From Bacteriovoracaceae bacterium (GTDB taxonomy: Bacteria > Bdellovibrionota > Bacteriovoracia > Bacteriovoracales > Bacteriovoracaceae): a DNA stretch of 64,000 bases. Shown in pieces: positions 194-40,678 of this stretch (its first letter is position 1; each line of letters starts with the position of its first letter). Below the pieces are notes generated by a model, which saw nothing but the letters and a program-made list of their open reading frames with translations, had not been told where the DNA came from and made no database searches. The DNA is taken from NCBI GenBank assembly GCA_018649885.1, contig JABIHA010000087.1, forward strand, positions 1-64,000, given 5' to 3'. A program made the position numbers and the translations under genes.

Positions 194-3100
194 ACTGCAG
201 ACGCTGCTGCCACTGCAACCGCCGCTGCATCAGTCGCTCAAATAATTTTTAAACAAGGGGCCACTACTTATTCTTCGGCCCAAACATATAGTTTTGGAAA
301 CTTTGCTGCTGGTGATGAAACTGATGTCACCTTTATTATAGAACACTCAGCAGGTATCAATGATGCTGGTGAAATAACTGTTACAGGATTAGCTGCTCCT
401 TATACATTTAAAGGAGGCGCTTGGCCTGGGGTTGGCGGAACTTGCGGGGCGCAACCTTTTGTTCTCACTCCCGCAGCTAGTTGTACTTTTGTCATGAACT
501 TCACTAGCAACCCAGGAACTAACACTACTTATCCTGATACTATTGTTATCGATTTTGATGACCTAGGTGGAACTTCACAAAATCAAACTGAAAATAGAAA
601 TATTACAGGTATCTTCCAAAAAGGTTGGTTCGATGCCACTGACTCAAGTCTTTCTGCAAGATTTGCATCCGAGTCTGTTTGGACAGGAAAGCAGATGATA
701 GTTTGGGGAGGAAAAACAGGATCTGCCAGCTCTACAAGGCAAAATGATGGTGCCCTTTATGATCCAATCACTGATAGTTGGACTCCTATGACCTCAACAG
801 ATGCGCCGACAGCTCGTTCACAACACAGAGTTAGTTGGGGTGGTGGAAAAATGTTTGTCTTTGGAGGACTAGGAACTAACGGTACCTTCTCAGCAGCAGG
901 TCAAGGTGGACTCTATAATCCTATGACTGATGATTGGGACCTAGTGGACACAACTGATGGCGATGAGCCCTCTGGAAGAATGGGCCACAGTTTAATTTAT
1001 GATCACACCAATCAGCAATTCATTATTTTTGGTGGAACTACAAATACATCCGTCCTTGCAGCTTCCAATACCTATTTCTTAGATCCAGATGGTGATGCAA
1101 ATGGAGATTGGCTTAAAATAGGGACAGCAGGGGCCCCAACTCAGCGGTATTATCATGGATCCCTTTGGACAGGTAGTGCAATGCTCGTCTGGGGAGGATG
1201 TACAAATAGATACAGCAATACCAATGGCTGTGATGCAAATGCCGAAGTCAATGATGGAATGGTCTTTATGCCATCAGGTGTTGGTGCGGGATCGTGGAAT
1301 GGTCTTGATGATGGTGCTGACCCAAATAAACCAAATGCACGTTACTTTCCAAAAATGTCCTGGGCGCCAGAGCTTGGCTCGCAGGGTAAAATTATTCTTT
1401 GGGGTGGATCCACAGACTCAACAAACACAGCAACACTTTTAGAAGAAACTACTGGTGCTGTATACGATTTGGCCGCTGCAGCCGATGCGAAATGGAGTCC
1501 TATTAATCAAACTGGTTCACCAAATGCTGGTGGAAGAAATATCTCACTTAATTTTTGGGATGGTACATATTTCTACATCTGGGGAGGCCTGCAATCAGAA
1601 GCTGCAGGAGTAGCCGATTTATATCGCTACAACCCAGGAGGAAATACTTGGTCAACTGTCGGAGAAGACGTAGGCATTGCACACAAAAGAACAGACCAAT
1701 CAGCAGGTGCCTACACGGGAGCAGGAGACGGTAGAATCATATTATTTGGTGGACGTTCTACAAGTTCTGCCAACAATACCAAGGCCACCACAATTTACGC
1801 TATTGATGGAACTCCTCCACCAATGATCACACTACAATACCCTAATGACTCAGCAGTCTCGGTTAATACAGGTTCGGAAATTAAAACTGGGTTTAATAAA
1901 GTGATGAATGAAAGCACGCTCAATAATTTTAATATCACACTGAGAAATTCCTCAGGTCAGCCTCTAGCTGGTTATATTAGTTATGACGCTCCATCAAAAA
2001 TTATGACCTATAGGCCTGCATTCCCAATGGAGCCGAATACTACCTATACTTACGAAGTTTCCAATAATGTACTTACGGGAGCAGCTGAAAATGTTCAAGG
2101 GGCCCCAAATTCCTATACTTTCACAACAGGTGATGTGGTCTTACACGCCGTTGGTTATGCAATGAACAGCGCGACTCCAAAAATAAGGGGTCGATGTAGC
2201 CCCAATGCCATAAATGTTGTGGCCAAGCTCGATGGTGGTGCGCAGGCGATGACTGATAGCGATTGTTCCGATGGGACTTTTGAAATCAACCTTTCTGGAC
2301 TTTCTGTGGCCAATCATGAAGTTCAAATTACGGCCGACTCAAATTCAAGTGGCGACACAGCGGACTTAAAGATAGAAGTACAAAACTGCGCGATGGCCGC
2401 CATTACAACAGCAGGTTCTTTTCCTGGAGGAGACGGAACTTCAGGGGACCCCTATCAAATCACCACTGTTGAAGAACTCGACCACGTAAGAGATGACATG
2501 GTCGGGGAATACTATAGGTTGATGAATAATATTGATCTGTCATGTAAAGCCTTCAGCGCACTAGGGACTTCAGCATCAAAATTCCAGGCAAACTTCGATG
2601 GCAATGGCTTTACCATTAGAAGGTTAAGTATTGATTACCCTACCGTCGACAACCTAGGATTTATTGGCTACATGGGCAACACAAGTTCTCTCATCAATAC
2701 AGGTGTTGTCGATACCTATATTAGAGGTGACGATCAAACGGGTGTTCTGGTAGGGCAATTATACTCCACTACAGCAACAGTTATAGATTCTTACGGATCA
2801 GGCTTTGTCCAAACAGGGGCTTCTACTAATGTTAATACTGGAGGCCTAGTAGGAATATTCAGAAATGGAATGGGCTCCAAGATTTACTTTGGTGGAGCTG
2901 TTGAAGGAGCTGTTACAACTGGAGGAGTTGCTGCTTATCCCTACGGTGCTAATATTTCCAATGCCATCAACTTTGGATTAGTAGCTCCACTTAAAGGAAC
3001 ATTTGGTGGAGTTTTTGGAAAATCTTACAATGTAGGTCATTTAACCAAGCTTACCAATTACGGCGTTGTTCATGGGCCCAATACGACCTCTGACACTGTT

Positions 3101-6100
3101 GGAGGTATAATTGGTTATAGCTATGGTTATGGCATGATTAGTGAATGTAAAAACTATGGATCTGTTAGTGGTGAAACTTCTGTTGGTGGAATCATTGGAA
3201 AACTATCAACCATAACTTTAGTAGACTGTGTTAACAAAGGGAAAGTCTACGGAAATTATTATGTAGGTGGAGTCGCCGGTAAACTTTATGGCTCTTCAAC
3301 TCTCGTTCGATCTCAAAACCACGGTGAAGTAGATGGTACAAATGGCACCACAAAAGACTATGTTGGAGGCGTTGCCGGCAGGGCCTACAAAACTAAAATA
3401 TCAGACAGCTACTCTACTGGTAATGTCACAGGGGACGCCTATGTTGGGGGATTCATTGGAGGAGTGCCTTCCGATGGAATCGCCGTTGTTGATAGCTATT
3501 CCAGTGGAGCTGTCACAGGAAATACCTTTACAGATAAATTTATTGGGGGAATCACAGGAACCCAAGCTCATATTCAATCATCTTTTTTCCTAGACACCGC
3601 TTGCGGAAATCCATTTACTCCACCGGCCACAGGAGGATGCCCAGGTGCAAATGGCGGATTAGGTATCACTGATGCTGAAATGAAAACTGAGGCCAATTTT
3701 ACTGGAGCAGGCTGGAGTTTTAGCACCACTACAAATGCCCCTTGGGAAATGGAAGGTGGAGGTCAATACCCTAGCCACAGATTCCAAAATAAATGTCCTA
3801 AAGGCTGGGAGAAAATTGAAATGGCCCCATCATATGCTGGTGGAGATGGTAGTGGTGGCAACCCCTATCAAATAACAAATGAAAACCAGCTTGCGAAAAT
3901 GTGGGAGAATACGGGCTCTGCCTTTAAGCTCAACAATGGAATCACCATTTCAACTTGTAGAGTGTGGTCACACGTTGGGGATCTTGCAGGTGCTTTTACT
4001 GGACAATTTAATGGCTTTAATCAAACCATAAATGGGCTTGTAGAAAATTCTAGTGGTGACTACGCAGGACTATTTGGTTATGCCGATAATGCCTCTGTAT
4101 CTATAAAAGATCTCACCATAAATAATGCCTATATCACAGGGCAAAAACACGCAGGAGCAGTTTTAGGTTATAGCAATAATGGAGATTTTATTGATAATGT
4201 AACTGTTACTGGAAAAATTCTTGGTACAAATAATGTCGGCTCCATTGCCGGTTACTCAAGATATTTAAAGATGTCTAGTATCACTAGTAATGGAACTGTC
4301 ATGGGGGCAATAAGCGTTGGTGGGTTGATAGGTTATCAAACGGTTAGTACAAACATCAGTACCTCAAGTTCCGCCAGTAATGTCATCGCCTTTGGTTCTT
4401 CCGTTGGTGGTATATCTGGCGTCTTATACAGCAACTCAAATATTACAAATACATATGCCACTGGAAATGTTTTTGGAGGAGAAAGTGCTTCTAGTGTAGG
4501 CGGCCTCATAGGAACTAGCTATGGTACCCCAAATACTATTACCTTTTCCCATGCAACAGGAAGTGTAAAAGGTGGAAGTAATGTTGGAGGACTGGCCGGA
4601 GAATTTAAAACTGTCGGGGCCATTATTTCTGATAGCTACGCCACAGGTAATGTTGAAGGAAACCAAAAAGTAGGAGGCCTTGTGGGCTACCTCTACTCCG
4701 ATGCTGTAGCCAAAAGATGTTACGCCTCAGGTAATGTTTCTTCTCCAGCTGCCATTTACGCGACAAAAGACGACCTTGGTGGTCTTGTTGGAAGGCTTGA
4801 GTCAAGAGGGTCCATTATTGACTGTTATTCAAATGGAAGTGTTGATGGTGACTCATATATTGGAGGTCTGGTCGGTCAATTAGGCGCCACAGGTGGGGTG
4901 ATCATTAACAGCTATACTAGAAGTGCTGCCACAGGAAACAGCAATGTGGATAAATTCATCGGTGGTAACTTAGGTCTTAACTCACTCATAGTTAACAGCT
5001 TTTTTGAAGATACAGGTTGCGGCTCTCCATTTACACCTCCCGCTACTGGTGGCTGCGCCGGTGCCAACGGAGGTTTAGGTCTTGCGACTGCTGATCTTCA
5101 AACTCAATCAGATTTAAGTGGGGTGGGATGGAACTTCACCAACAATGCCACATGGGTAATGGGAGGATCTTCCTACCCTGAAGTTGTCACCATCAATACC
5201 TGTCCAACTGGAAGTAGCGCAGTTGCAGCTGATGCTACATTTGCAGGAGGAACTGGAACAAGTGGAGATCCCTACTTAATAGACTCCACGGCAAGACTGG
5301 TCAAAATGGGAGAAAACCTAACTAAGTACTATAAACTAACAGCAAATGTTGGCTTTAGCTCTTGTCAGCACTGGATACCAATCGGTGACGCCACCACAAA
5401 ATTCACCGGTGGATTTGATGGAAACTCAAAGATAATCAAAGGCCTTCGAACCATCACCAATGGAAGTAATTATAAAGGGCTCTTTGGCTACATTCAAAGT
5501 GGTGAGATTAAAAACTTAATAATGGAAGATAGTATTATTGAAGGGGGCGCCTTCATGGGTACTATTGTAGGGAGAGCCGATTCGGCCAGTAATATTTTTG
5601 ACAACATAACTGTCACCAGGACCACTATTAATGGTACTACATCACTAGGTGGTGTTGTAGGTTATGCACTTCAAGCGAAACTCAAAAATATTACCGTCGA
5701 TGACTATAATTTTATTAATGGAACTACTGATGTCGGCGGAGTAGCAGGATATTTAGGCACCAATGCTTGGATAGAGAATGGCTCAGCATCAGCTGATATT
5801 ATAGGAACTACAGATGTTGGTGGAGTTGTAGGTCAAACTGTCGGTGGAACAATCCATAATTTTTCTACTACAGGAAAAATAAGTTCTCTAGGAGATAATG
5901 GAGCTGCTCTAGGAGGCATTGTTGGTTATGCCAACAGTAGTACATTGGTGGCAAAATGTAGCTCATCTGCAACTGTAAGCGGAAATAACTATATTGGCGG
6001 CTTAGTTGGTGAGGCCAAAACCCAAACTAATATCATCTATAGCTACTCCACTGGAAATATCTATGGCGACACCAAGGCTGGAGGGCTCATTGGCTACCTC

Positions 6101-7588
6101 CATCAAGATGCTCGAGTAGTAAGATCTTTTAGTTCATCACCAGTTAGTGCTCTACCTGGCGGAGGCTCAGGTGGAGATATAATGGGAGGCATGGTCGGCC
6201 TCATCGAAAAACGAGGGGCCATCATTGACTCTTATTCTAACGGAGCTGTTTCCGGAGATGACGCCGTTGGTGGATTTGCCGGTACTATAGGAATAAATGG
6301 AGTATTACTAAATCGTGTCTACACTACTTCCGTGGCCACAGGTAATACGAATATTGATAAATTTACACCTTACAATAACTCGTCTGCGGAATCAGGCTCT
6401 GCAATCATAGATGCATTTTATGAAGATGCTGGTTGTGGCGGTGGTGCTGCCGGTTGTGCCGGACCTGTTGTGGGAACAGCTTTAACTCAGTTTTATCTGC
6501 AAGACCTTACCACGATGGAATCCTATAATTTTGGCTTTGTTGGCTCATCAGGCTCGGCCTGGAAATACCCAGCGGGAAGTACATATGCAAAAATCGATGT
6601 TCTCGATTCTTGTCCAGGCGGAATCACGAGAGTTGCTGAAGCAGCTACATTTGCTGGAGGTACAGGAATACTGGCAGATCCATACTTGATTGACACTCCA
6701 GAGAGACTTGCCAAAATGAGTGAAAACTTAAGTGCTTATTATAAACTAACAACTAATATGGCTGGTGCCCCTTGTAAATTCTTTACTCCTATTGGAGCTT
6801 ATGCACCACAATTTGTAGGCGAGCTTGATGGTAACTCATTTGGTATTAAAAACTTTCTCTTTTTAAGAGATTCAGCAGCCGACACCATCGATAGAGTGGG
6901 ACTCTTCGGGGGAATGGTTGGCGTCAATGCTGCAATAAAAGATATGACTATTAGCGATTCTATTGTAATGGGAAAAAATGATATTGGAACATTTGTAGGA
7001 GATGGATACATAGGCAATGCCTCTGTCCCAGGAACCTACACTAATCTCAAGTCACATAGCAACCAAGCTTATGGTGGAAACTATGTTGGTAGTGCATTTG
7101 GACTACACACTGGAACACTAGATAAAATAGAAACTAAAAATCCTATGGTCTTTGGAGAATATCAAGTTGGAGGGATCATAGGACAATTCCAAAAAGCGGC
7201 TTCGACTCTTTCAAATTCTTTTTCAAAAGGTGGCCTTGTTCTCGCCCAAGACAAAGCTGGTGGTCTCATTGGAAGAAACTACTACTCTGTTACTGTAGAC
7301 AAGTCTTACAATGTAACTAAAGTTATGATCTGGTCAGGAAGCTCAAATGCTGAAGGTATAATTGGATCCCAGATTTTAGGGGCACCAGTAGTCACTAAGT
7401 CAGTCTTCTTCGATCCCAACTGTGTCACTGCCTATAGCTCGGGAGGCTGTGCCTCTACCAATGGTGGCATAGGTCTCGACGATACCGATATGAAGGCAGC
7501 CGCCACTTATAATGCCACCGGCGAAAACTGGGACCTTGCAACAGTCTGGGATCACGTAGGTGGAACAGACTATCCATTCCTGAGATAG
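2..7588 (+). CDS. Giant secreted/surface protein, 5'-partial: Ala-rich repeat stalk, ASH/choice-of-anchor-D Ig-like domain, Kelch beta-propeller, Big_5-like Ig domain, four GLUG-repeat modules
   Basis: The frame is open from position 2, so the ATG at 494 is internal. Motifs: FKGGAWPGVGGTCG..SCTF; Kelch-type xWGG/FGG repeats with W; GxGxxxxPYxI module starts near 2425, 3838, 5246 and 6656; many VGGLVG (GLUG) motifs. Confidence 0.85.
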   Translation, partial: TAEAQASATAEAQSSATAHAQASATAQAQASATAEAQASATAEAQASATAEAQASATAEAQASATADAAATATAAASVAQIIFKQGATTYSSAQTYSFGNFAAGDETDVTFIIEHSAGINDAGEITVTGLAAPYTFKGGAWPGVGGTCGAQPFVLTPAASCTFVMNFTSNPGTNTTYPDTIVIDFDDLGGTSQNQTENRNITGIFQKGWFDATDSSLSARFASESVWTGKQMIVWGGKTGSASSTRQNDGALYDPITDSWTPMTSTDAPTARSQHRVSWGGGKMFVFGGLGTNGTFSAAGQGGLYNPMTDDWDLVDTTDGDEPSGRMGHSLIYDHTNQQFIIFGGTTNTSVLAASNTYFLDPDGDANGDWLKIGTAGAPTQRYYHGSLWTGSAMLVWGGCTNRYSNTNGCDANAEVNDGMVFMPSGVGAGSWNGLDDGADPNKPNARYFPKMSWAPELGSQGKIILWGGSTDSTNTATLLEETTGAVYDLAAAADAKWSPINQTGSPNAGGRNISLNFWDGTYFYIWGGLQSEAAGVADLYRYNPGGNTWSTVGEDVGIAHKRTDQSAGAYTGAGDGRIILFGGRSTSSANNTKATTIYAIDGTPPPMITLQYPNDSAVSVNTGSEIKTGFNKVMNESTLNNFNITLRNSSGQPLAGYISYDAPSKIMTYRPAFPMEPNTTYTYEVSNNVLTGAAENVQGAPNSYTFTTGDVVLHAVGYAMNSATPKIRGRCSPNAINVVAKLDGGAQAMTDSDCSDGTFEINLSGLSVANHEVQITADSNSSGDTADLKIEVQNCAMAAITTAGSFPGGDGTSGDPYQITTVEELDHVRDDMVGEYYRLMNNIDLSCKAFSALGTSASKFQANFDGNGFTIRRLSIDYPTVDNLGFIGYMGNTSSLINTGVVDTYIRGDDQTGVLVGQLYSTTATVIDSYGSGFVQTGASTNVNTGGLVGIFRNGMGSKIYFGGAVEGAVTTGGVAAYPYGANISNAINFGLVAPLKGTFGGVFGKSYNVGHLTKLTNYGVVHGPNTTSDTVGGIIGYSYGYGMISECKNYGSVSGETSVGGIIGKLSTITLVDCVNKGKVYGNYYVGGVAGKLYGSSTLVRSQNHGEVDGTNGTTKDYVGGVAGRAYKTKISDSYSTGNVTGDAYVGGFIGGVPSDGIAVVDSYSSGAVTGNTFTDKFIGGITGTQAHIQSSFFLDTACGNPFTPPATGGCPGANGGLGITDAEMKTEANFTGAGWSFSTTTNAPWEMEGGGQYPSHRFQNKCPKGWEKIEMAPSYAGGDGSGGNPYQITNENQLAKMWENTGSAFKLNNGITISTCRVWSHVGDLAGAFTGQFNGFNQTINGLVENSSGDYAGLFGYADNASVSIKDLTINNAYITGQKHAGAVLGYSNNGDFIDNVTVTGKILGTNNVGSIAGYSRYLKMSSITSNGTVMGAISVGGLIGYQTVSTNISTSSSASNVIAFGSSVGGISGVLYSNSNITNTYATGNVFGGESASSVGGLIGTSYGTPNTITFSHATGSVKGGSNVGGLAGEFKTVGAIISDSYATGNVEGNQKVGGLVGYLYSDAVAKRCYASGNVSSPAAIYATKDDLGGLVGRLESRGSIIDCYSNGSVDGDSYIGGLVGQLGATGGVIINSYTRSAATGNSNVDKFIGGNLGLNSLIVNSFFEDTGCGSPFTPPATGGCAGANGGLGLATADLQTQSDLSGVGWNFTNNATWVMGGSSYPEVVTINTCPTGSSAVAADATFAGGTGTSGDPYLIDSTARLVKMGENLTKYYKLTANVGFSSCQHWIPIGDATTKFTGGFDGNSKIIKGLRTITNGSNYKGLFGYIQSGEIKNLIMEDSIIEGGAFMGTIVGRADSASNIFDNITVTRTTINGTTSLGGVVGYALQAKLKNITVDDYNFINGTTDVGGVAGYLGTNAWIENGSASADIIGTTDVGGVVGQTVGGTIHNFSTTGKISSLGDNGAALGGIVGYANSSTLVAKCSSSATVSGNNYIGGLVGEAKTQTNIIYSYSTGNIYGDTKAGGLIGYLHQDARVVRSFSSSPVSALPGGGSGGDIMGGMVGLIEKRGAIIDSYSNGAVSGDDAVGGFAGTIGINGVLLNRVYTTSVATGNTNIDKFTPYNNSSAESGSAIIDAFYEDAGCGGGAAGCAGPVVGTALTQFYLQDLTTMESYNFGFVGSSGSAWKYPAGSTYAKIDVLDSCPGGITRVAEAATFAGGTGILADPYLIDTPERLAKMSENLSAYYKLTTNMAGAPCKFFTPIGAYAPQFVGELDGNSFGIKNFLFLRDSAADTIDRVGLFGGMVGVNAAIKDMTISDSIVMGKNDIGTFVGDGYIGNASVPGTYTNLKSHSNQAYGGNYVGSAFGLHTGTLDKIETKNPMVFGEYQVGGIIGQFQKAASTLSNSFSKGGLVLAQDKAGGLIGRNYYSVTVDKSYNVTKVMIWSGSSNAEGIIGSQILGAPVVTKSVFFDPNCVTAYSSGGCASTNGGIGLDDTDMKAAATYNATGENWDLATVWDHVGGTDYPFLR

Positions 7589-7679: not shown

Positions 7680-7790
7680 TGGAGTGGAGTTGCACGCCCT
7701 CGGAAATCTAGCGAGCCTTGATAGAAGCCCCCCACACCACCTTACTTGCTAAGGTCCACGAGACTTCCGAGGGCGTGCAAACCCACTCCA
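7680..7790. repeat. Long intergenic inverted repeat (30-bp arms, extendable to about 40 bp)
   Basis: 7680-7709 TGGAGTGGAGTTGCACGCCCTCGGAAATCT matches the reverse complement of 7761-7790 at 27/30 positions, with a perfect 16-bp core. Confidence 0.9.
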
Positions 7791-8357
7791 CCCACGAGTC
7801 AAACCTCTCAAGAAAACTCAATGAAAAACAAATAGCTACAGACTATCAAACCTCCTTTTCCATAAAAGAATTACTACCACCGAAAATAAACCTAAACCCA
7901 AGCGGTACATCAATGAAAGGTCACGCCTCTTAAAAATCTATGCCTTGTCTGGATGACCCTGATAGTAGCCCCACTATCTCACTTACTATGGAGGGACAAA
8001 ATAGGGCACAAGCCAACATAATCCCCTTCCTATAAAAGCATAATAGAGAAATTAATCTACTTCTTTTATCAACAAATATTCCATACTCTATAAATAATTC
8101 TTAGTTAGAATTTTCCATCTTCAGTGAAGAGCAGAAATCGACGATAATAGTAGGGCGAGAAACACTTAAGCTAGGGGACACTTATTAGTACAGCAAAGAA
8201 AGATCAAAAAAAAGATAGTAAGGGTATTGGGCTTGGGAAAGTGATTCAATTTTCCAAGAAACAAAGAGAAAAAGAGCTATTATCTTACCAGGTTTCTGAT
8301 AAGAAAGAGCCACTTACGAGAAAGTCTTTATCTACCAAAGAAAAAGTTCTCTCAAAA

Positions 8358-9041
8358 TTATAGAATTTTCTCGGCGATTAGACTAATCAGATACTGATGC
8401 TCGTCAGAGAGATCACCTCTTAAATTATCTAAAATAAACCTTGTCTCTTTTCTATATTTTTCCACAAATTTAGCATGTTTTAATTCAGGCCCTACAGGTG
8501 GTGTAATAGTAAAATCAGATACATTATCGAGCCTGTCTGCCAGTTTAATTAAAAGGGCCTGATCACTCATGGCATTCATTTTCTGAGTTAAATACCTGGC
8601 CTTCCCCAAGCTCCCAAATTGCTCTTTGTACATGGCCAAAACTGAAGGGTTTGAGCTCAACTCGGCAACAAACTGGGAAACCCTCTTTCCAAAGCTTTTA
8701 GTAATAAGGGCAAGCGTGGCAGGCGTGTCTTCCACCACATCATGAAGAAAGGCCACCATCACCAGCTGATGATCACCAGTCAGCTCCTTGATTGTTTGAG
8801 CGACTCTATTGGGGTGAGTAAAGTAGGGAGTTCCATCAAATTTTCGTTTCACTCCAGTCGCTCTATGAAACGTTCTGGCAAAGGCGCGGGCCTTTCCAAT
8901 TTCTTCAAGTGCTTGGGGATCGCCGTATTTAGCAAAGCTAGCAAGATCTGTGACACTTTCAGGACAGCTGGCACGAGAGCTTATGCCAAATAAACTGTGA
9001 GCTACAATGAGTAGAAGTAAGAAACTACGATTTATAAACAT
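8358..9041 (-). CDS. RelA/SpoT-type HD-domain hydrolase (Mesh1/small alarmone hydrolase-like) with an N-terminal signal-like peptide
   Basis: Motifs RKFDGTPYFTHP, LHDVVEDT and KLADRLDN. ATG at 9041 has a GGGGA RBS and is followed by the hydrophobic stretch SFLLLLIVAHSLFG. Confidence 0.85.
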   Translation of the reverse strand: MFINRSFLLLLIVAHSLFGISSRASCPESVTDLASFAKYGDPQALEEIGKARAFARTFHRATGVKRKFDGTPYFTHPNRVAQTIKELTGDHQLVMVAFLHDVVEDTPATLALITKSFGKRVSQFVAELSSNPSVLAMYKEQFGSLGKARYLTQKMNAMSDQALLIKLADRLDNVSDFTITPPVGPELKHAKFVEKYRKETRFILDNLRGDLSDEHQYLISLIAEKIL

Positions 9042-9117
9042 TAAAATCCCCAAAAGATTTGGGGAATTTGGCATAGCTTTAATTCCAATACAATCTAAAA
9101 ATTACACCGTGAAAAAA

Positions 9118-15867: not shown

Positions 15868-16056
15868 ATAGTATCAGAGAAAAATTAATATGAAGAAATT
15901 TTTCTTTTTATTTCAGCCAGTTCCGACTGTTCTGGAACATATAAGAAATACCACAGAGCAGTATTAGAGACAGGGTTTAGAGACAGGATTGACACGAACT
16001 GTGACATAAATAGCATAGCTACCCTACTAACCTCTCCATTTTCTAGATACCTGAAA

Positions 16057-16073
16057 CTGGCAAAGAACTTGCT
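16057..16073 (+). promoter_or_regulatory. sigma54 -24/-12 promoter for the divergent lipoprotein operon
   Basis: CTGGCAAAGAACTTGCT has exact GG-N10-GC spacing, about 50 nt upstream of ATG 16122 (AAGGAG RBS). Confidence 0.85.
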
Positions 16074-16121
16074 TTAGTACAGGTAAAAATAATTTGATTC
16101 TCAAATCAAGGAGAGAGAAAA

Positions 16122-16715
16122 ATGAAAATAACCAACTTAAAAAAATTATCAGTCCTTATGTGTTTATTAACTCTAGTTGCTTGTAAAATTGAAGGGGAAG
16201 CCGACTTTACTGCTTCGCCCTCATCTGGGCCTTCAATAAATGCATACCACTCTAATGTCGACCACCTGATGCTCTATGATTTTGCCGATGTCAGTGGTTA
16301 TGAAGTTGAGGACACATGTGACTCAGTGATGTTCAACCTAAGCTACAAACCACACGTAGTTGATGTGTATAAGAAAAGTGATTTCTCTTATATCGATGTC
16401 TACAAGTATGATGGCCTAAAAATAAGTTGTGATCGAGACACTAGGACAGTTCATTCATTAACCGTCACTCCTGGCATTAAAAGCTTGGTTGAAATGGATG
16501 AAAAGGCCTTTGTCATTGTAGAAAGAAGTATTACAGACGACCAAATCCTTGACCGCTTTCCCAATTACTATAGATTCGATGAAGATTACTTCAAAGATAC
16601 CAAAATCATTACCTACAAAGTTGATTTCAAATCATGGGTTCATATCAAAATTGATAAGGGTCTAGTCAAGTCTTACCAGGTCTCGAAATCTTCCATTCCT
16701 TTCTTGCTCTGGTAA
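16122..16715 (+). CDS. Hypothetical lipoprotein
   Basis: Lipobox LVA-C after a hydrophobic stretch; good RBS. Confidence 0.7.
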   Translation: MKITNLKKLSVLMCLLTLVACKIEGEADFTASPSSGPSINAYHSNVDHLMLYDFADVSGYEVEDTCDSVMFNLSYKPHVVDVYKKSDFSYIDVYKYDGLKISCDRDTRTVHSLTVTPGIKSLVEMDEKAFVIVERSITDDQILDRFPNYYRFDEDYFKDTKIITYKVDFKSWVHIKIDKGLVKSYQVSKSSIPFLLW

Positions 16716-35529: not shown

Positions 35530-36624
35530 ATGGGTAAGCTAGTCACAGTCTCTATTGAAAGCATTGTCCCCTACAACCCAGGGAAAACCACTGAAGAGCT
35601 CAAAAGTGAGCTAGGACTAGAAAAGATCATTCGGGCCTGTGCCAATGAAACCTTTCTGCCCCCCTCCGAAAAAGCTATTGAAGCTGTTGTGGCCAACTTA
35701 GATCAACTTCCCATTTACCCCGATGGTGGCGCAAGTAATTTGAGAAATAAAATTGCCCAAAAAATGAATGTAGATGCTGATGAAGTGGTTCTTGGAAATG
35801 GCTCAAATGAGCTCATTGAGTTGATTGTCAGAACTTTTGCAAGGCCTGCTGACGAGATCATTACATCTATCCCAAGCTTTGTAGTATACAAGCACATAGC
35901 CCTGGCCCATGGATTAAAAGTCCATGAGCTACCACTTAAAAATCAAAAATTTGATTTGGCCGCCATGAAAGCGAAAATCACACCTCAGAGTCGCTTTATC
36001 TTTATTGCCAATCCCAACAACCCTACTGGCACCTATATTACAAATCGAGAGCTTGAAGAATTTTTAACTGATCTCCCGGAAGATCTTATAGTTGTTTTAG
36101 ATGAGGCCTATATTGAATATGTGGATGCGGATGATTTTCCCAATTCACTCGACTACCGAAATCAGCATCAAAATCTGATCACACTCAGAACTTTTTCAAA
36201 AATTTATGGCCTTGCTGCCCTCAGGGTTGGTTATGCCATTGCACAAAAAAATATCATCAACTATCTTGGTAGAGTCAGGGCCGTTTTCAATGTGAACTCT
36301 CTGGCCCAAGTCGCCGCTGAGGCAGTGCTAGATGACAGGGAGTATATTCAAAATTCAAAAAACCTTTTACTCCAAAATAGAAAACAACTAAGCGAGGGAC
36401 TAAGCTCGCTTGGGCTCACGATCACTCCCAGTCAGGCCAATTTTGTGTTGGTGGATTTAATGGGAGCAGATACCTTAGAAACTCAAAAAGAACTTTTAAA
36501 AAGAGGTGTGTTTGTGGCACCAATGCCCACTTCTTGGCTTCCTCATCACCACCGGGTGAGTGTCTGCAGTTTTGAGGATAATATGGAAATTATTTCAGCC
36601 TATAAAGAAGTCTTAAAACTTTAG
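35530..36624 (+). CDS. hisC: HisC-family PLP aminotransferase (histidinol-phosphate or aromatic amino acid)
   Basis: Motifs YNPGK, GNGSNE, NPNNPTG, DEAY and RTFSKIYGLAALRVGY. Confidence 0.8.
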   Translation: MGKLVTVSIESIVPYNPGKTTEELKSELGLEKIIRACANETFLPPSEKAIEAVVANLDQLPIYPDGGASNLRNKIAQKMNVDADEVVLGNGSNELIELIVRTFARPADEIITSIPSFVVYKHIALAHGLKVHELPLKNQKFDLAAMKAKITPQSRFIFIANPNNPTGTYITNRELEEFLTDLPEDLIVVLDEAYIEYVDADDFPNSLDYRNQHQNLITLRTFSKIYGLAALRVGYAIAQKNIINYLGRVRAVFNVNSLAQVAAEAVLDDREYIQNSKNLLLQNRKQLSEGLSSLGLTITPSQANFVLVDLMGADTLETQKELLKRGVFVAPMPTSWLPHHHRVSVCSFEDNMEIISAYKEVLKL

Positions 36625-36765
36625 ATTCTTTCTTATATCTGGGTGTTGACAAAAAATCATGAAAGTTTTGTAGAATTAGTAGAATGGTTTTAATTGGCTT
36701 TGATATTAGCTCAGTGTTTTAAGAGTGGTATTGACAAGACCACACCCTACCGCCGCTGGAGGTAT

Positions 36766-36930
36766 TCGCGGTTCTGGAAATTTAGTGGTGCCACGAATAT
36801 TTGAAGAGCGCCTTCTATTAGGGTCGCCCATCTAAGGTGCAAACCTTCAGAAAAACATTATTTTATGGATGTTATTCTCTAACTAGATTTAATTTCTGTA
36901 GTAGCAAGTAATTCAAAAAGAGATATGTTT
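36766..36930 (+). repeat. HNH-associated repeat, copy A (diverged; direct orientation relative to B)
   Basis: CGGTTCTGGAAATTTAGTGGTG...GAGCGCCTT...CTAGATTTAATT..GTAG is collinear with copies B and C. Confidence 0.75.
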
Positions 36931-37076
36931 GTACACCAATACCAATTTTGTAGTTTCAACATCGCCATAGGCTGAGGGTTGGTAGCTCTGAAGATAACGA
37001 GAAATTTATTTAATTTCAAAGAACTATTTGAAATTTGGTTTATGCCTTATTTGATTTTTGAAAAAAAATAAAAGTT

Positions 37077-37315
37077 ATGTGGAACCAGTTGTGAAAAGCT
37101 GCTGCTCACGGTGCTGGAAAGTTTAGTGGTGTTTCGAGATTTTGGAAAGCATCTCTTATCAAGGCGGCATTTTTTTAAAAAAAGTAATTTTTTATTGATA
37201 TCTCGCTCCCAGCTGAATTTAATTATCGTGGTAGTTGCTTTTATGAAAAAGGGAAATCGGTTGTTTGGAATTTTTATAATTTTTTGTCTATTTGGTGAAA
37301 AGGTTTTGTGAATTT
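37077..37315 (+). repeat. HNH-associated repeat, copy B (left inverted repeat)
   Basis: 37217-37245 is the exact reverse complement of 38515-38543 (29 bp). 37103-37130 matches 38628-38655 at 26/28 positions. Confidence 0.9.
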
Positions 37316-37475
37316 TCATTCTATTGCGTTTTACATTCGTTCTTTCAGTGAATCCATAATCGCTAACAGCTCCTACCGGATTACCTTTCATGCTTTTTCT
37401 GACTGGACATTTTTTAATCTTTTTATTTAATAAATGTGATTGGAATGGTATGTTACTTCCACCTGGGAGGTCGCT

Positions 37476-38345
37476 TTGTCACTACGGAATTTATCAGATC
37501 AAGGACTTATTGCAGACACTAAAATGTGGAATGAAAAAGAAGAACACTGTACTCGCCAGTTCCTCCGCCACATTAATGAGGTGAATAGACGAAGGCTTTT
37601 TTGTGATGATAAGACGGGCTCACTCTTTAAATATATCCGCAAAAATTTCAATAAAAGTGATAGCGAAACAAGTCGAAGAGTTTTAGCAGCGAAAACACTA
37701 AGGCATGTGCCCTGTGCAGATAAAGCTCTGGCAAACAAACAAGTAACACTTACTAACCTGGCAGAAATCTCAAATTTAGTGGAAAATATTAAAAGTAAAA
37801 AAAAGAAAAATGAAATACTAGGCAGTATAAAAGGGAAGACTCAAATCCAGACAAGAGAGTTTGTGGACGAGTTGACTGGAAAGAAGCGCGCCACTAGATC
37901 TAAAACTCACTCTCACTCAGATGGAAGTATTCGCATTCATCTCACCTTGGTTGGGCAAACGGCAAAAGATTATGATTTTATTAAAGAACAGCTATCTAAC
38001 AATAGAATCTATAAACCAGAAGACATAATAGGACATGCCATTAACCCTAAAGCAGAGTCTATGAGAAAAAGGATTATGGGCATTGGATCAAGAAAATCTA
38101 AAGTAATCACAAATTCTAGAACCATCTCAGCTGCCATCAAAAATGCAGTGATGATAAGGTCGGGCAACAAATGTGAAAACTGTGACTCAAAGTACAACCT
38201 ACACTTTGATCATATCATCCCCCATAGCATGGGGGGAGCATCGGCGATCGGGAACGTGCGCCAGTTATGTTCAAATTGCAATGCAAGAGCCGCTATTGTT
38301 GCACTTTCGCAGACAAAGATGGATTTATTTATAAACCAGAGCTAG
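37476..38345 (+). CDS. HNH endonuclease with a long helical N-terminal region (DUF222-like architecture)
   Basis: C-terminal CENC..DHIIPHSMGG..N..LCSNCN; N-terminal LSD..L..HINEVNRRRL..SLFKY..SRRVLA. TTG start at 37476 after GGGAGG. Confidence 0.9.
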   Translation: MSLRNLSDQGLIADTKMWNEKEEHCTRQFLRHINEVNRRRLFCDDKTGSLFKYIRKNFNKSDSETSRRVLAAKTLRHVPCADKALANKQVTLTNLAEISNLVENIKSKKKKNEILGSIKGKTQIQTREFVDELTGKKRATRSKTHSHSDGSIRIHLTLVGQTAKDYDFIKEQLSNNRIYKPEDIIGHAINPKAESMRKRIMGIGSRKSKVITNSRTISAAIKNAVMIRSGNKCENCDSKYNLHFDHIIPHSMGGASAIGNVRQLCSNCNARAAIVALSQTKMDLFINQS

Positions 38346-38431
38346 AAAGTTCTCAAGTTCCCCTCAACCTTTTGTCTTGCCTACGAATCACTCCCAAGCT
38401 GCGCCAATAATTATCTCCACCAAAGAGACAA

Positions 38432-38682
38432 CTAATTACAAAAAAATTTCCAGCAAACTGATTAAAAAATAAAAAGATTCCAAATGACCACCAGACCCAC
38501 ATATTCACCTTTTCCATAAAAGCAACTACCACGATAATTAAATCCAGCTAGAGCGAGACATCAATACATTTCTCCACTGCTTAAATTTTTACGCCTTGAT
38601 AAAAGGCGCTCTCAAAACTTTCATAATACCACTAAATTTTCCAGCGCCGTGAGCAATTTCTCTTCATAACTGTCTCCACAAA
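38432..38682 (-). repeat. HNH-associated repeat, copy C (right inverted repeat)
   Basis: The reverse complement aligns to copy B over about 240 bp, with one short insertion near 38490-38503. Confidence 0.9.
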
Positions 38683-38794
38683 TCCCCCACCTATCACAAA
38701 TTTTCTCCAAGTAACCTTCAAAGATAGTCCCATCATGAAAATCTGATTTTATCAATTTTAAAGGGGTTAACTAAATATGAGATACAGAAAAAAT

Positions 38795-40003
38795 CTAGAG
38801 TGATTCAACAGAAAATGAAATTCCTTGACCTACCCCTATACACATAGTGGCCAGACCTTTTTTATATTTGGGGTTGCCCTTCATTTGATGGACCAAAGTG
38901 GTAATGATTCTCGCACCTGAGCAGCCAAGGGGATGACCGAGAGCGATCGCCCCTCCATTAAGATTTACAATAGCAGGATCTAGCTCAAGCTCTTTTATGC
39001 ATGAAAGTGCTTGGGCCGCAAAGGCCTCATTAAGTTCTATCAAATCAAAATCAGAAATCTTTTGCCCATGCCTTTCACAAAGCTTCCTTGTGGCCATGAC
39101 AGGACCTATTCCCATGGTATTCGGATGAACCCCGCAAACCCCAACACCTGTTACTTTTGCAAGTGGATTCAACTGGTGCTTTTTTAAAAAAGATTCCGAG
39201 ACAATTACAAGTGCGGCTGCACCATCATTAAGTGATGATGAATTTCCCGCCGTGACAGTTCCATCTTTTCTAAAAACAGCTTTAAGTGCGGCCAGTTTCT
39301 CTAGAGACGTTTCCTTTCTAGGACTTTCGTCTTTCGAAAAAGTGTATCCCGGTTTTTTCTTTTGCCCAGGAATATCAATTGGTAAAATCTCACTATCAAA
39401 ACGACCATTTTCCTGTGCACTCACGGCCTTTTGATGGGATTCAAAGGCAAAGAGATCTTGCTCTTCTCTACTGAGGCCGTATTTAGAAACTAACTCTTCA
39501 GCAGTTTCTCCCATATTAAATAGAGGAAACATCTTCTCCATAGCAGGGTTTGGAAATCTCCATCCAAGAGTGGTGTCATAAATCTTTTGAGTTCCCGAAT
39601 AATTTGATTCAGCTTTTGACATCACAAGAGGTGCCCTTGTCATGCTCTCCGCTCCACCTACAACAAAACAATCTCCCATGCCTGCAGCAATTTTAGATAC
39701 AGCGTAAATGGCTGCATCCATGGAGGAGCCACAGAGTCGATTAAGGGTAGTGCCGGGAACACTCATGGGAAACTGGGCCAGTAGAGAAGACATTCGCGCC
39801 AGATTTCGGTTATCTTCTCCGGCCTGGTTAGCACAGCCAACAATTACATCATCAATAAAATCGGGATTGATGCCAGAGTGATTTTTTACATCCACAAACA
39901 GCTTTGCCAGAAGGTCATCGACCCTGACAGAGCTAAGCGCCCCTTTAAATCTCCCAATGGGAGATCTCTTGGCATAAATAATATAAGCAGGTTCACCTTT
40001 CAT
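38795..40003 (-). CDS. Thiolase, PcaF/PaaJ-like (3-oxoadipyl-CoA thiolase family)
   Basis: Motifs [31 protein letters not shown] and MCIGVGQG. Confidence 0.92.
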
Positions 40004-40099: not shown

Positions 40100-40678
40100 C
40101 TAGCAATCGTGTTCTGGCAGGCAAAAGCCTTTCCTAACCCAGTAGCTATAAACATCAGCATTGTTGTAGGTGGTAAAGATTTTGTTATACCACATACGGG
40201 GCTTAGTTTTTGAATGATATTCTAGATCAAAAGCACCACATCGATGGGCGACTTCATGAATCATGATGGCACTTTGATATTTCTGTGTGTAAGTGTAGTA
40301 CACATCACAAAGTTTAATTTTTCCAAAAATCCAACTCACCCATGCTGAGGCCTTGCCGTCTTTGCAAAGCTTTCCTTTATTCTCACAATTAAATTTTACT
40401 TTAGGGAGAAGCCTATCAATACACTGAGCTCTTTCAAGGATTTGCCAAAGATGAAGATCATAGCCACTTGGTTTTTTTGGGTCACTCATTCTTTGCTTGA
40501 TTTGATTAATTAAATTTTTAATATCTGTGAAGGCAAGCTTTCTAATTGTCTCCACTCCCCTTTCTTCACAGCTAGGTCTCATGGCCCCACTGTCAAACTC
40601 TATAATTTGTCCTGAATAGTTAGGCGTGGTTGCAAAAACTGTACTCGATAGTAGTGAGATAAAAATCCATTTCATCAT
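40100..40678 (-). CDS. Secreted M35/aspzincin-like metallopeptidase
   Basis: Signal peptide; HEVAH..GAFD (HEXXH plus D); NADVY. Confidence 0.75.
   Translation of the reverse strand: MMKWIFISLLSSTVFATTPNYSGQIIEFDSGAMRPSCEERGVETIRKLAFTDIKNLINQIKQRMSDPKKPSGYDLHLWQILERAQCIDRLLPKVKFNCENKGKLCKDGKASAWVSWIFGKIKLCDVYYTYTQKYQSAIMIHEVAHRCGAFDLEYHSKTKPRMWYNKIFTTYNNADVYSYWVRKGFCLPEHDC

Follow-up and report, generated by a model that had tools for sequence, protein, structure and literature searches.

The 64,000-nucleotide (nt) stretch analyzed here (hereafter the window), from the genome of a Bacteriovoracaceae bacterium (assembly GCA_018649885.1, contig JABIHA010000087.1), holds a gene for an HNH nuclease of 289 amino acids (aa; 37476-38345, + strand) that is enclosed by two inverted arms (37075-37273 on the + strand and 38474-38683 on the − strand). 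The locus is one intact copy of a nuclease cassette of approximately 1.6 kb that is present in many copies in this genome, and it is composed of outer modules of approximately 190-200 nt that point inward from both sides, a variable spacer, a promoter-like site with a ribosome-binding site, and the 289-aa gene. The element is real, multicopy, and not a product of chance. The genome is available as a 5.45-Mb draft in 151 contigs (92% complete, 3.9% contamination, 38% G+C), in which the window belongs to the contig designated C3.

The original prediction, made from the letters of the window, had described the non-coding flanks of the HNH gene as imperfect inverted repeats of about 240 bp, and this description holds. 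A blastn comparison of the locus with itself joined 37078-37307 to 38680-38441 over 242 columns (71.5%, E 1.7e-28), and the predicted perfect 29-bp block (37217-37245 / 38515-38543) can be read directly in the sequence. A repeat finder divided the same flanks into an inverted pair of 89 nt (37078-37166 / 38592-38680, 78% complementary) and a second one of 47 nt (37211-37257 / 38503-38549, 91%) that includes the perfect 29-mer. The ends of the unit were set from the copy on contig C71, which aligns end to end with window positions 37072-38684; contigs of public sequencing runs break at 37074 and 38684, and the hairpins of the arms sit at the very end of the unit. The features of the locus are given below, where nhmmer refers to an iterated arm profile and R1 to a covariance model of the outer 92 arm positions.

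36685-36757, − strand: relic of an older cassette, resembling the inner arm extension and spacer of the second arm type described below (blastn with the spacer of the C25 copy, 74% over 73 nt, E 2e-5)
36755-36906, + strand, same orientation as the left arm: partial third arm, copy A (nhmmer 36761-36906, 62 bits, profile positions 21-154; R1 36755-36825, 20.9 bits; inverted pairs with the right arm)
37075-37273, + strand: left arm (terminal module), pointing inward (nhmmer 37081-37273, 146 bits; R1 37075-37166, 77.8 bits)
37079-37109, + strand: predicted hairpin P1 of the left arm (pair counts)
37110-37115 with 37148-37153, + strand: predicted stem P2 of the left arm (pair counts)
37158-37162 with 37195-37199, + strand: predicted stem P3 of the left arm (pair counts)
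within 37075-37273, + strand: conserved block GTGGTAG / CTTTTATG of the left arm (direct sequence reading)
37360-37390, + strand: block 5' of the promoter-like site, partly conserved and partly palindromic among 15 aligned upstream regions, which could be an operator
37426-37454, + strand: promoter-like site of TTTAAT (37426-37431), a 17-nt spacer, and TGGTATGTT (37446-37454), with near-invariant columns in 15 copies
37465-37470, + strand: ribosome-binding site GGGAGG, with no or almost no variation across all 15 copies
37476-38345, + strand: HNH nuclease gene, 289 aa (Pfam, AlphaFold2, fold matches)
38346-38473, no strand: spacer from the stop codon to the right arm, with little conservation between copies that have the first arm type
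38474-38683, − strand: right arm (terminal module), inverted and pointing inward (nhmmer 38676-38474, 170 bits; R1 module 38592-38683, 93.3 bits, the top match in the genome)

The start codon was placed at TTG 37476, as predicted, because this TTG and the GGGAGG before it are kept in all 15 aligned copies. The promoter-like site, a consensus reading, lies approximately 25 nt 5' of the start codon in the same 15 copies, so that the left arm would fall outside the messenger RNA if this site is used; a generic promoter scan did not include 37426-37454 among its listed sites. Matches of the gene in blastn mostly stop at approximately 38348, with the arms matching separately and few alignments extending into the spacer. 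A Pfam scan of the HNH open reading frame (ORF), which is the sole long ORF of the unit, and of four neighboring ORFs, with short overlapping ORFs outside its scope, returned HNH-type families only for the HNH gene and no other match between the arms, in agreement with the claim that the unit encodes no transposase or integrase. The neighbors are metabolic and convergent, as had been stated, with a class I/II aminotransferase on one side (35530-36624, +) and a thiolase on the other (38795-40003, −). The partial third arm and the multicopy nature of the unit had gone unmentioned in the original prediction. Beyond the thiolase gene, a 192-aa ORF (40100-40678, −) has a near-threshold match to M35 lysine-specific metallopeptidases (28.8 bits, cut-off 30).

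Copies of the cassette in the genome and in other collections

Searches of the genome with tblastn recovered 16 gene copies of full or nearly full length (80-88% protein identity), together with a badly decayed copy, fragments at contig ends, and approximately ten paralogues at 24-28% identity. The 289-codon frame is open in 12 of the 16 copies; a stop codon interrupts it on C102 and C47 and a frameshift on C92 and C9. The nhmmer profile found 59 arm copies (E ≤ 1e-3), of which 41 have a gene or gene fragment of this subfamily within 900 bp, and every one of these 41 points inward, an inverted-arm pattern that is far beyond chance. The arms are therefore not a repeat scattered without any link to HNH genes, which was one of the outcomes that the original prediction had named as its own refutation. 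Five of the remaining arms are too close to contig ends to be judged and 13 are solo, most of them weak or partial. Arms are often stacked two or three deep in tandem, with the outer ones ending after approximately 110 positions.

All seven complete two-arm cassettes are intergenic, with unrelated neighbors and in various orientations. The two arms within one cassette are usually each other's best match (identity 0.95, 0.85, 0.83, and 0.78), and the median identity over all arm pairs is 0.58 with gaps counted. In the window cassette the pair reaches 0.76 and an arm of another cassette is marginally closer (0.77), and two further cassettes have weaker pairs (0.68 and 0.47). The arms can be aligned between cassettes and the spacers cannot, save for the last 60-100 nt 5' of the start codon.

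The copies are old, and the protein has been under purifying selection along most of their history, since pairwise synonymous divergence (dS) is 0.64-1.98 (median 1.13) and the median ratio of nonsynonymous to synonymous divergence (dN/dS) is 0.088 among 11 open copies of equal length and 0.091 in a set of 13 copies. Decay products are present as well. On C25 (38110-38995), an internal deletion has removed the gene except for its last seven codons, leaving these with the spacer and both arms; because the codons remain, this gene-less pair is a deletion product rather than a virgin site. A scrambled derivative on C29 (21006-21350) joins three pieces, namely a full arm, the beginning of another arm, and an arm fragment in inverted orientation.

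Two tandem solo arms lie elsewhere in the window (7707-8037, −) with no HNH gene nearby, where the neighbors are the end of a 2364-aa ORF (494-7588, +) and, convergent with it, an ORF at 8358-9074 (−); R1 matches at 7714-7813 (60.4 bits) and weakly at 7955-8037, and nhmmer at 7836-7988 and 7707-7777. Three ORFs of 188-217 aa elsewhere in the genome (C65:4340-4663, C118:4571-4909, and C93:3660-3947) match the Y1 transposase family at 31-35 bits, just over the cut-off. The Y1 family comprises transposases of the IS200 type and those associated with repetitive extragenic palindromes (REP), and these ORFs could move hairpin repeats in trans.

Of 16 loci on metagenome contigs, 15 match the genome at 100% identity over all or part of their length, and the remaining one, L109, is a flank-only match that holds a further gene copy continuing contig C35; the contigs thus represent the same population and no second strain. 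A loose end at 37023 in run X1 does not continue into the sequence to the right of the cassette.

Among 41 genomes, the source genome included, seven hold a relative of the protein at E ≤ 1e-5, and two of these carry several copies (G024 with six matches at 29-34% identity, and G008 with seven). Four of the five copies retrieved from G024, which belongs to a related genus, share 250-340 nt of A+T-rich sequence upstream and approximately 30 nt downstream; the shared upstream part holds a small covarying G+C hairpin and a promoter-like site, and the copies have neither inverted arms nor an R1 match. Run on 150 further genomes from the phylum, R1 matched weakly at two places, neither with an HNH neighbor. 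A word-indexed protein search returned 18 matches, all at ≥80% identity, and an exhaustive profile search found the full-length architecture in 4,761 cluster representatives at E ≤ 1e-30 and in 26,938 at E ≤ 1e-10. The two-block pattern of the arms occurred 113 times on viral contigs, matches that we attribute to chance because R1, run on 80 of them, found nothing real (best E 0.076). Plasmid and phage collections yielded matches to the HNH domain only, and a scan of a genome collection yielded one unrelated HNH-domain match.

Pairing in the arms and the module of distant paralogues

When 31-37 arms are aligned, the conserved blocks CACG, CTATCAAGGC, TTATTGAT, GTGGTAG, and CTTTTATGGAA alternate with variable stretches. 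Stem P2 lies directly 3' of CACG. Its sequence is GGCGCT...AGCGCC in one arm type; other types have GCCCCT...AGGGGC or GCCC...GGGC, and the window and C71 copies have GGTGCT...AGCACC or AGCATC. In a plain MAFFT alignment of 37 rows, the halves of P2 are paired at 98% and 90%, one of its pairs is G-C in 18 rows and C-G in 16, and 82% of all cells are paired as compared to 34-44% with slid partners. Cells changed on both sides number 35 against 15.5 ± 2.9 in shuffled alignments, and none of 500 shuffles reaches 35. The pairing of P2 is thus kept by compensatory change. RNAalifold, given the raw alignment, returned P2 alone with four pairs. A model-fitted alignment, which is biased toward the structure, has P2 paired at 95%, P1 and the inner P2 stem each at 61%, and the whole structure at 69.7% versus 65.2% when shuffled.

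Watson-Crick pairs are in excess (450 versus 393 ± 8 expected), and neither G-U pairs (125 versus 133.5 expected) nor A-C pairs (40 versus 42) are enriched. There is thus pairing, which fits either strand, and RNA as well as DNA. Stem P3 varies as ATCGA/TCGAT in one copy and as ATCAC/GTGAT in one of the distant subfamilies described below (subfamily B). No Rfam family matched at E ≤ 1 in the window locus or in four other cassette loci, and a promoter and terminator scan listed nine sites where 6.9 ± 2.5 are expected.

Some arms carry an optional insertion of 14-18 nt just 3' of P2, which is G+C-rich and forms a putative GGG...CCC mini-hairpin; it occurs in copy A (approximately 36811-36830) and in arms on C17, C39, C60, and C114. 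In a second arm type, the inverted repeat reaches approximately 165 nt further inward on both sides (for example C47:14758-15005 / 16007-16171), and this extension is richer in G+C and holds a AAAACTACCC...GGGTAGTTTT hairpin without an Rfam match. The motif CTGGTGG / TTGGTGG recurs at the inner end of many arms, pointing inward (for instance at 38480-38490, −, in the window); we take it to resemble the Chi octamer of Escherichia coli at most positions, on a strand that is G+T-rich anyway. Further candidates were dropped. An outward-facing pair of sites from the promoter and terminator scan, inside the arms, falls in a region with length-variable insertions in other copies; a conserved small ORF with its ATG in the CTTTTATGGAA block was rejected because other copies lack the ATG or reach a stop within 6-14 codons; and an integron attC site, a group I or II intron, and a ribozyme were set aside for an intergenic unit without recombinase, reverse transcriptase, or Rfam match.

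The R1 model matches 54 places in the genome, and some of the weak matches adjoin HNH genes far outside the subfamily of the window. Five paralogues at approximately 25% identity (on C132, C72, C76, and C16, and the second gene on C102) carry an R1 match with E values of 2e-6 to 2.4e-4 (filters off, 58 kb searched). In the C72, C76, C16, and C102 loci it lies approximately 351-357 nt upstream of the start codon on the strand of the gene; the C132 gene is an internally deleted fragment, at which the distance differs. Weaker matches occur approximately 500 nt upstream of the genes on C137 and C8, and C110 has a weak downstream match that points inward. The paralogue modules bring a third stem sequence, GGGCCG...CGGCCC, between the CACG and CTTTTATCACGGC blocks.

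Two subfamilies were distinguished among the distant paralogues. Subfamily B has seven members (C72, C76, C16, C102:85750-87046, C123, C45, and C132) with approximately 25% identity to the window protein and 85-88% among themselves, and its unit runs from an R1-like module through a leader of approximately 430 nt to the gene and ends at the stop codon, with no downstream arm. The three members of subfamily C (C109:3147-3854, C137:15135-15812, and C8:45243-45962) share approximately 620 nt upstream with an internal upstream duplication. No long inverted flanks were found around 11 distant paralogues. Because the paralogue units begin at the module and end at the stop codon, module, leader, and gene make up the basic unit of the lineage; the inverted downstream copy is special to the expanded subfamily of the window, and the R1 module is older than the inverted arrangement. 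The leader of subfamily B is no more conserved (identity 0.76-0.82) than third codon positions (0.79-0.83), and constraint must therefore be argued from the presence of the module in subfamilies with approximately 25% protein identity between them.

The nuclease

The protein matches the Pfam HNH family at approximately 39.8-39.9 bits (cut-off 21.4) over residues 233-270 and no other type of Pfam family. Its HNH domain (residues 212-283) has two zinc-binding CxxC pairs and a catalytic histidine, and across 87 aligned sequences no change occurs at C236, H246, or C265 and hardly any at C233, N260, or N269. AlphaFold2, given the alignment of 87 rows, produced a model with a mean predicted local distance difference test (pLDDT) score of 92.6 and a predicted template modelling (pTM) score of 0.80. 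Residues 18-136 are modelled as a long dimerizing helix with a helix-turn-helix domain of the KorB/ParB kind, whose fold matches KorB, ParB, Spo0J, Noc, and SopB (Z scores of 6.8 for KorB, 6.6 for ParB, and 5.6; Foldseek probability 0.97 for Noc). Residues 143-204 match ribbon-helix-helix antitoxins and NikR (Z of approximately 5, root-mean-square deviation 1.7-2.5 Å over approximately 50 residues), and residues 212-283 the HNH domains of McrA (Z 7.0), a phage protein (6.9), and IscB (6.8). Taken together, these fold matches are a consistent hint of a DNA-binding nuclease.

The homodimer model scored 0.80 (median of three runs) versus 0.00 for the best control, at a mark that was reached by 20 of 30 known homodimers and by one of 23 single chains in calibration, which supports a predicted homodimer. 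The modelled interface runs through the long N-terminal helix (residues 3-44, 57-64, and 88-94), at least 40% of contacts are common to the runs, and pLDDT in the partner chain is 70-78.

With respect to known families, the window protein has no match to DUF222 (PF02720) at E ≤ 10, and a six-frame search of its own genome gave none at E ≤ 0.01. A relative in G008 (L024, E 3.9e-22 to the window protein) does match DUF222 (27.9 bits, cut-off 24.4), L025 reaches 20.3 bits, and five of the 87 aligned family members match at E ≤ 0.001. As these matches come through relatives, the family touches DUF222 / 13E12 and the window protein does not itself qualify. The top sequence matches of the HNH domain are HNH domains of IscB; IscB entries of the PDB are matched over residues 228-283 only, and the NCBIfam model guided_IscB (35.2 bits, cut-off 175) at profile positions 180-235 only, which are its HNH part.

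Readings of the cassette and known systems

Our favored reading, to which we give a probability of roughly 0.45, is that the locus is a selfish cassette related to the HNH family of the DUF222 / 13E12 repeats, in which the terminal module is a DNA site recognized by the cassette's own dimeric nuclease. The nuclease would recognize the conserved sequence blocks of the arm, probably with the P1 and P2 hairpins extruded or single-stranded, and would nick at the terminal module, a cut from which recombination or repair would begin to copy the cassette. A symmetric dimer would find an equivalent site in each of the two inverted modules and could thereby cut both ends and both strands. Binding, cleavage, mobility, and its route are what we infer; the reading accounts for the sharp ends, the orientation rule, the co-evolving arms, the decay products, the old partnership of module and gene, and the DNA-binding build of the protein. 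Of the element that the original prediction had imagined as selfish and mobilized by its own HNH protein, the selfish character is favored by multiple copies at unrelated sites, sharp ends, decayed copies, a deletion derivative, and solo arms. Self-mobilization drew no such backing, with no empty site, target duplication, or recent copies found.

A number of observations weigh against this reading. All data on the arms come from one draft genome and one population, and relatives in other genera have neither long inverted flanks (five loci) nor an R1 match. With a minimum dS of 0.64 there are no recent copies and hence nothing that points to current movement; four public metagenome runs gave no empty site or joint at the locus, and reading of the flanks of the window copy and of 40-odd arm ends revealed no target-site duplication. 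The many old intact copies fit selection in place as well as selfish spread, and neither they nor the single-module subfamilies are well accounted for: in subfamilies B and C the unit has a lone module and finishes at the stop codon, meaning that the family does not depend on two symmetric ends. The star-like gene tree agrees with the arm types only in part. Within the arms only P2 is well supported, P1 and P4 being paired at approximately 61-67%, the inner P2 stem at shuffle level, and P3 (ATCAA/TTGAT) almost invariant, and the folding energy of the arms is not below that of shuffled sequences (mean z +0.18 forward and −0.53 reverse). The Z scores of the fold matches are middling by the tool's own calibration.

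The arms may instead be genes or leaders of a structured RNA, either a partner of the nuclease resembling omega RNA or HEARO or a cis-regulatory RNA, which we consider unlikely. In one version, a scaffold would be read inward from both flanks with the flanking sequence becoming the guide; in another, the downstream inverted copy would be an antisense or pairing partner. In IscB loci the omega RNA module lies upstream, in sense orientation, at the edge of the unit, and the module of the distant paralogues is placed in the same way. The compensatory changes in P2, the three versions of P3 (AUCAA/UUGAU, AUCGA/UCGAU, and AUCAC/GUGAU), the conserved blocks alternating with variable stems and an optional hairpin insertion, and the IscB domains at the top of the HNH matches all point the same way. 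Against an RNA stand the lack of an Rfam family at E ≤ 1, folding z-scores that are non-significant on both strands, and a G-U count (125 versus 133.5 expected) by which no strand can be named, as well as a promoter-like site approximately 25 nt 5' of the start that would put the arm outside the messenger RNA. The protein, moreover, models as two double-stranded-DNA-binding modules plus HNH without RuvC or PLMP, and tandem stacks of two to three arms are odd for guide scaffolds. The proposal in the original prediction that paired or convergent non-coding RNAs from the flanks guide or silence the nuclease therefore found no direct support (no RNA run among the 20 runs listed for the locus, no Rfam match, ordinary folding energy, no G-U enrichment, a DNA-binder model); the compensatory change in one stem and the sense upstream module of distant paralogues are the part of the evidence that speaks for it. 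An extension of the idea, which strikes us as a long shot, would make the arms scaffolds of a new nucleic-acid-guided HNH system unrelated to IscB that directs a two-nick break at a cassette-free site. Each inward module would be transcribed, or exposed single-stranded, together with the adjoining flank; the symmetric dimer would take two guides, one per flank and on opposite strands; the double-strand break at a cassette-free copy of the site would be repaired so that the cassette is restored; and subfamilies B and C, with their single upstream module, would represent the ancestral form with one guide.

Two other explanations were weighed. It is rather improbable that the arms are an independent dispersed repeat, a landing pad like a miniature inverted-repeat transposable element (MITE) or a REP, among whose copies a free-standing homing endonuclease gene spreads, the nuclease cutting a gene-less arm pair and repair from a filled copy, with the arms as homology, inserting the gene. 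No target duplication was seen, the arms at 190-350 nt have sufficient length to provide homology, full arms have partial ones stacked on their outer side, the gene tree matches the arm types only in part, as would be expected from exchange between copies, and the 13 solo arms, the gene-less pairs on C25 and C29, and the three Y1-transposase-like ORFs would all be at home in this explanation. However, solo arms are just 13 of 59 and mostly weak or partial, the only clear gene-less pair, on C25, arose by deletion and is no virgin site, and the units of subfamilies B and C, with their single module, lack homology downstream; the module beside HNH paralogues of approximately 25% identity indicates a specific old partnership. 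We hold it to be more doubtful still that the copies are no longer mobile and are kept by the host or by addiction, as stress-induced nucleases or recombination hot spots of the kind proposed for 13E12-repeat genes, or as self-regulated nucleases with the arms as operators. Autoregulators typically have ribbon-helix-helix and helix-turn-helix modules, and the protein has predicted modules of both kinds; the 12 open copies with dS of at least 0.64 and dN/dS of approximately 0.09 speak for long selection in each lineage; and the window copy stands at the same site in contig pieces of four public runs from different studies. In the part of PMC13157036 that is accessible, the DUF222 / 13E12 genes of Mycobacterium tuberculosis are described as damage-induced and as lying at inversion breakpoints. 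Broken and deleted copies, relics, and solo arms mean turnover, however, the arms are far from the promoter-like site and also stand 3' of the gene, which is unusual for operators, and close relatives were not found in the other genomes searched.

Among known systems, the OMEGA nucleases (IscB and IshB with omega RNA or HEARO) resemble the cassette in several ways: the nuclease gene is compact and present in many diverged copies, a conserved module lies at the upstream sense edge (non-coding and structured by prediction in subfamilies B and C and in the left arm of the window), and the HNH domain of IscB is the closest in sequence. In the accessible portions of the sources, IshB is an HNH-only OMEGA protein of approximately 180 aa (PMC11610941), HEARO is grouped with IscB (PMC13565253), and both touch on the layout of IscB and omega RNA. 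The window protein differs in lacking RuvC and PLMP, with its guided_IscB match confined to the HNH stretch, and in an N-terminal two-thirds that models as double-stranded-DNA-binding domains, and the window locus differs in the lack of a HEARO or other Rfam match and in a second, inverted module downstream. Like insertion sequences and MITEs, the cassette has terminal inverted repeats at the ends of the unit, is multicopy and intergenic, and leaves deletion derivatives, solo ends, and assembly breaks at its ends. Unlike them, its HNH gene has no transposase or integrase domain in Pfam, no target duplication was seen at its arm ends, its arms of approximately 190-350 nt contain putative internal hairpins and are sometimes stacked in tandem, and its copies are old and diverged rather than near-identical. 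With free-standing HNH homing genes it shares a lone, intergenic HNH gene under selection, with predicted expression signals of its own and no transposase, but it does not sit in an intron, intein, or phage genome, has a dedicated flanking repeat family, and gave no empty target allele in the four runs.

In overall build the protein resembles the DUF222 / 13E12 proteins (PF02720 plus PF01844, including mycobacterial REP13E12), which have approximately 300 aa, a helical N-terminus, and a C-terminal HNH domain with CxxC pairs, and which occur in many diverged copies per genome; the difference is that the window protein itself has no DUF222 match in Pfam. DUF222 is equated with the 13E12 repeat family in the available text of PMC13157036, and REP13E12, HNH, and DUF222 appear among the repetitive elements listed in that of PMC10589994. 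Long structured inverted arms or a terminal hairpin module were not described for this family in the literature searched, which comprised openly available text exclusive of subscription-only papers and supplements. HNH proteins with a DUF222-like N-terminus are very common, the mycobacterial 13E12 repeats among them, and their function and multiplication are unexplained in the same literature. The genome analyzed here is a legible case, with approximately 20 diverged copies, a strict orientation of the arms, a module kept at approximately 25% protein identity, and a confident protein model that has two DNA-binding modules and a dimer interface. A module that is an RNA or a single-strand guide would make the cassette a guided nuclease of a new kind, and one that is a DNA end would define a transposase-free type of mobile cassette. 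The cassette provides a new handle on the behavior of a widespread nuclease family.

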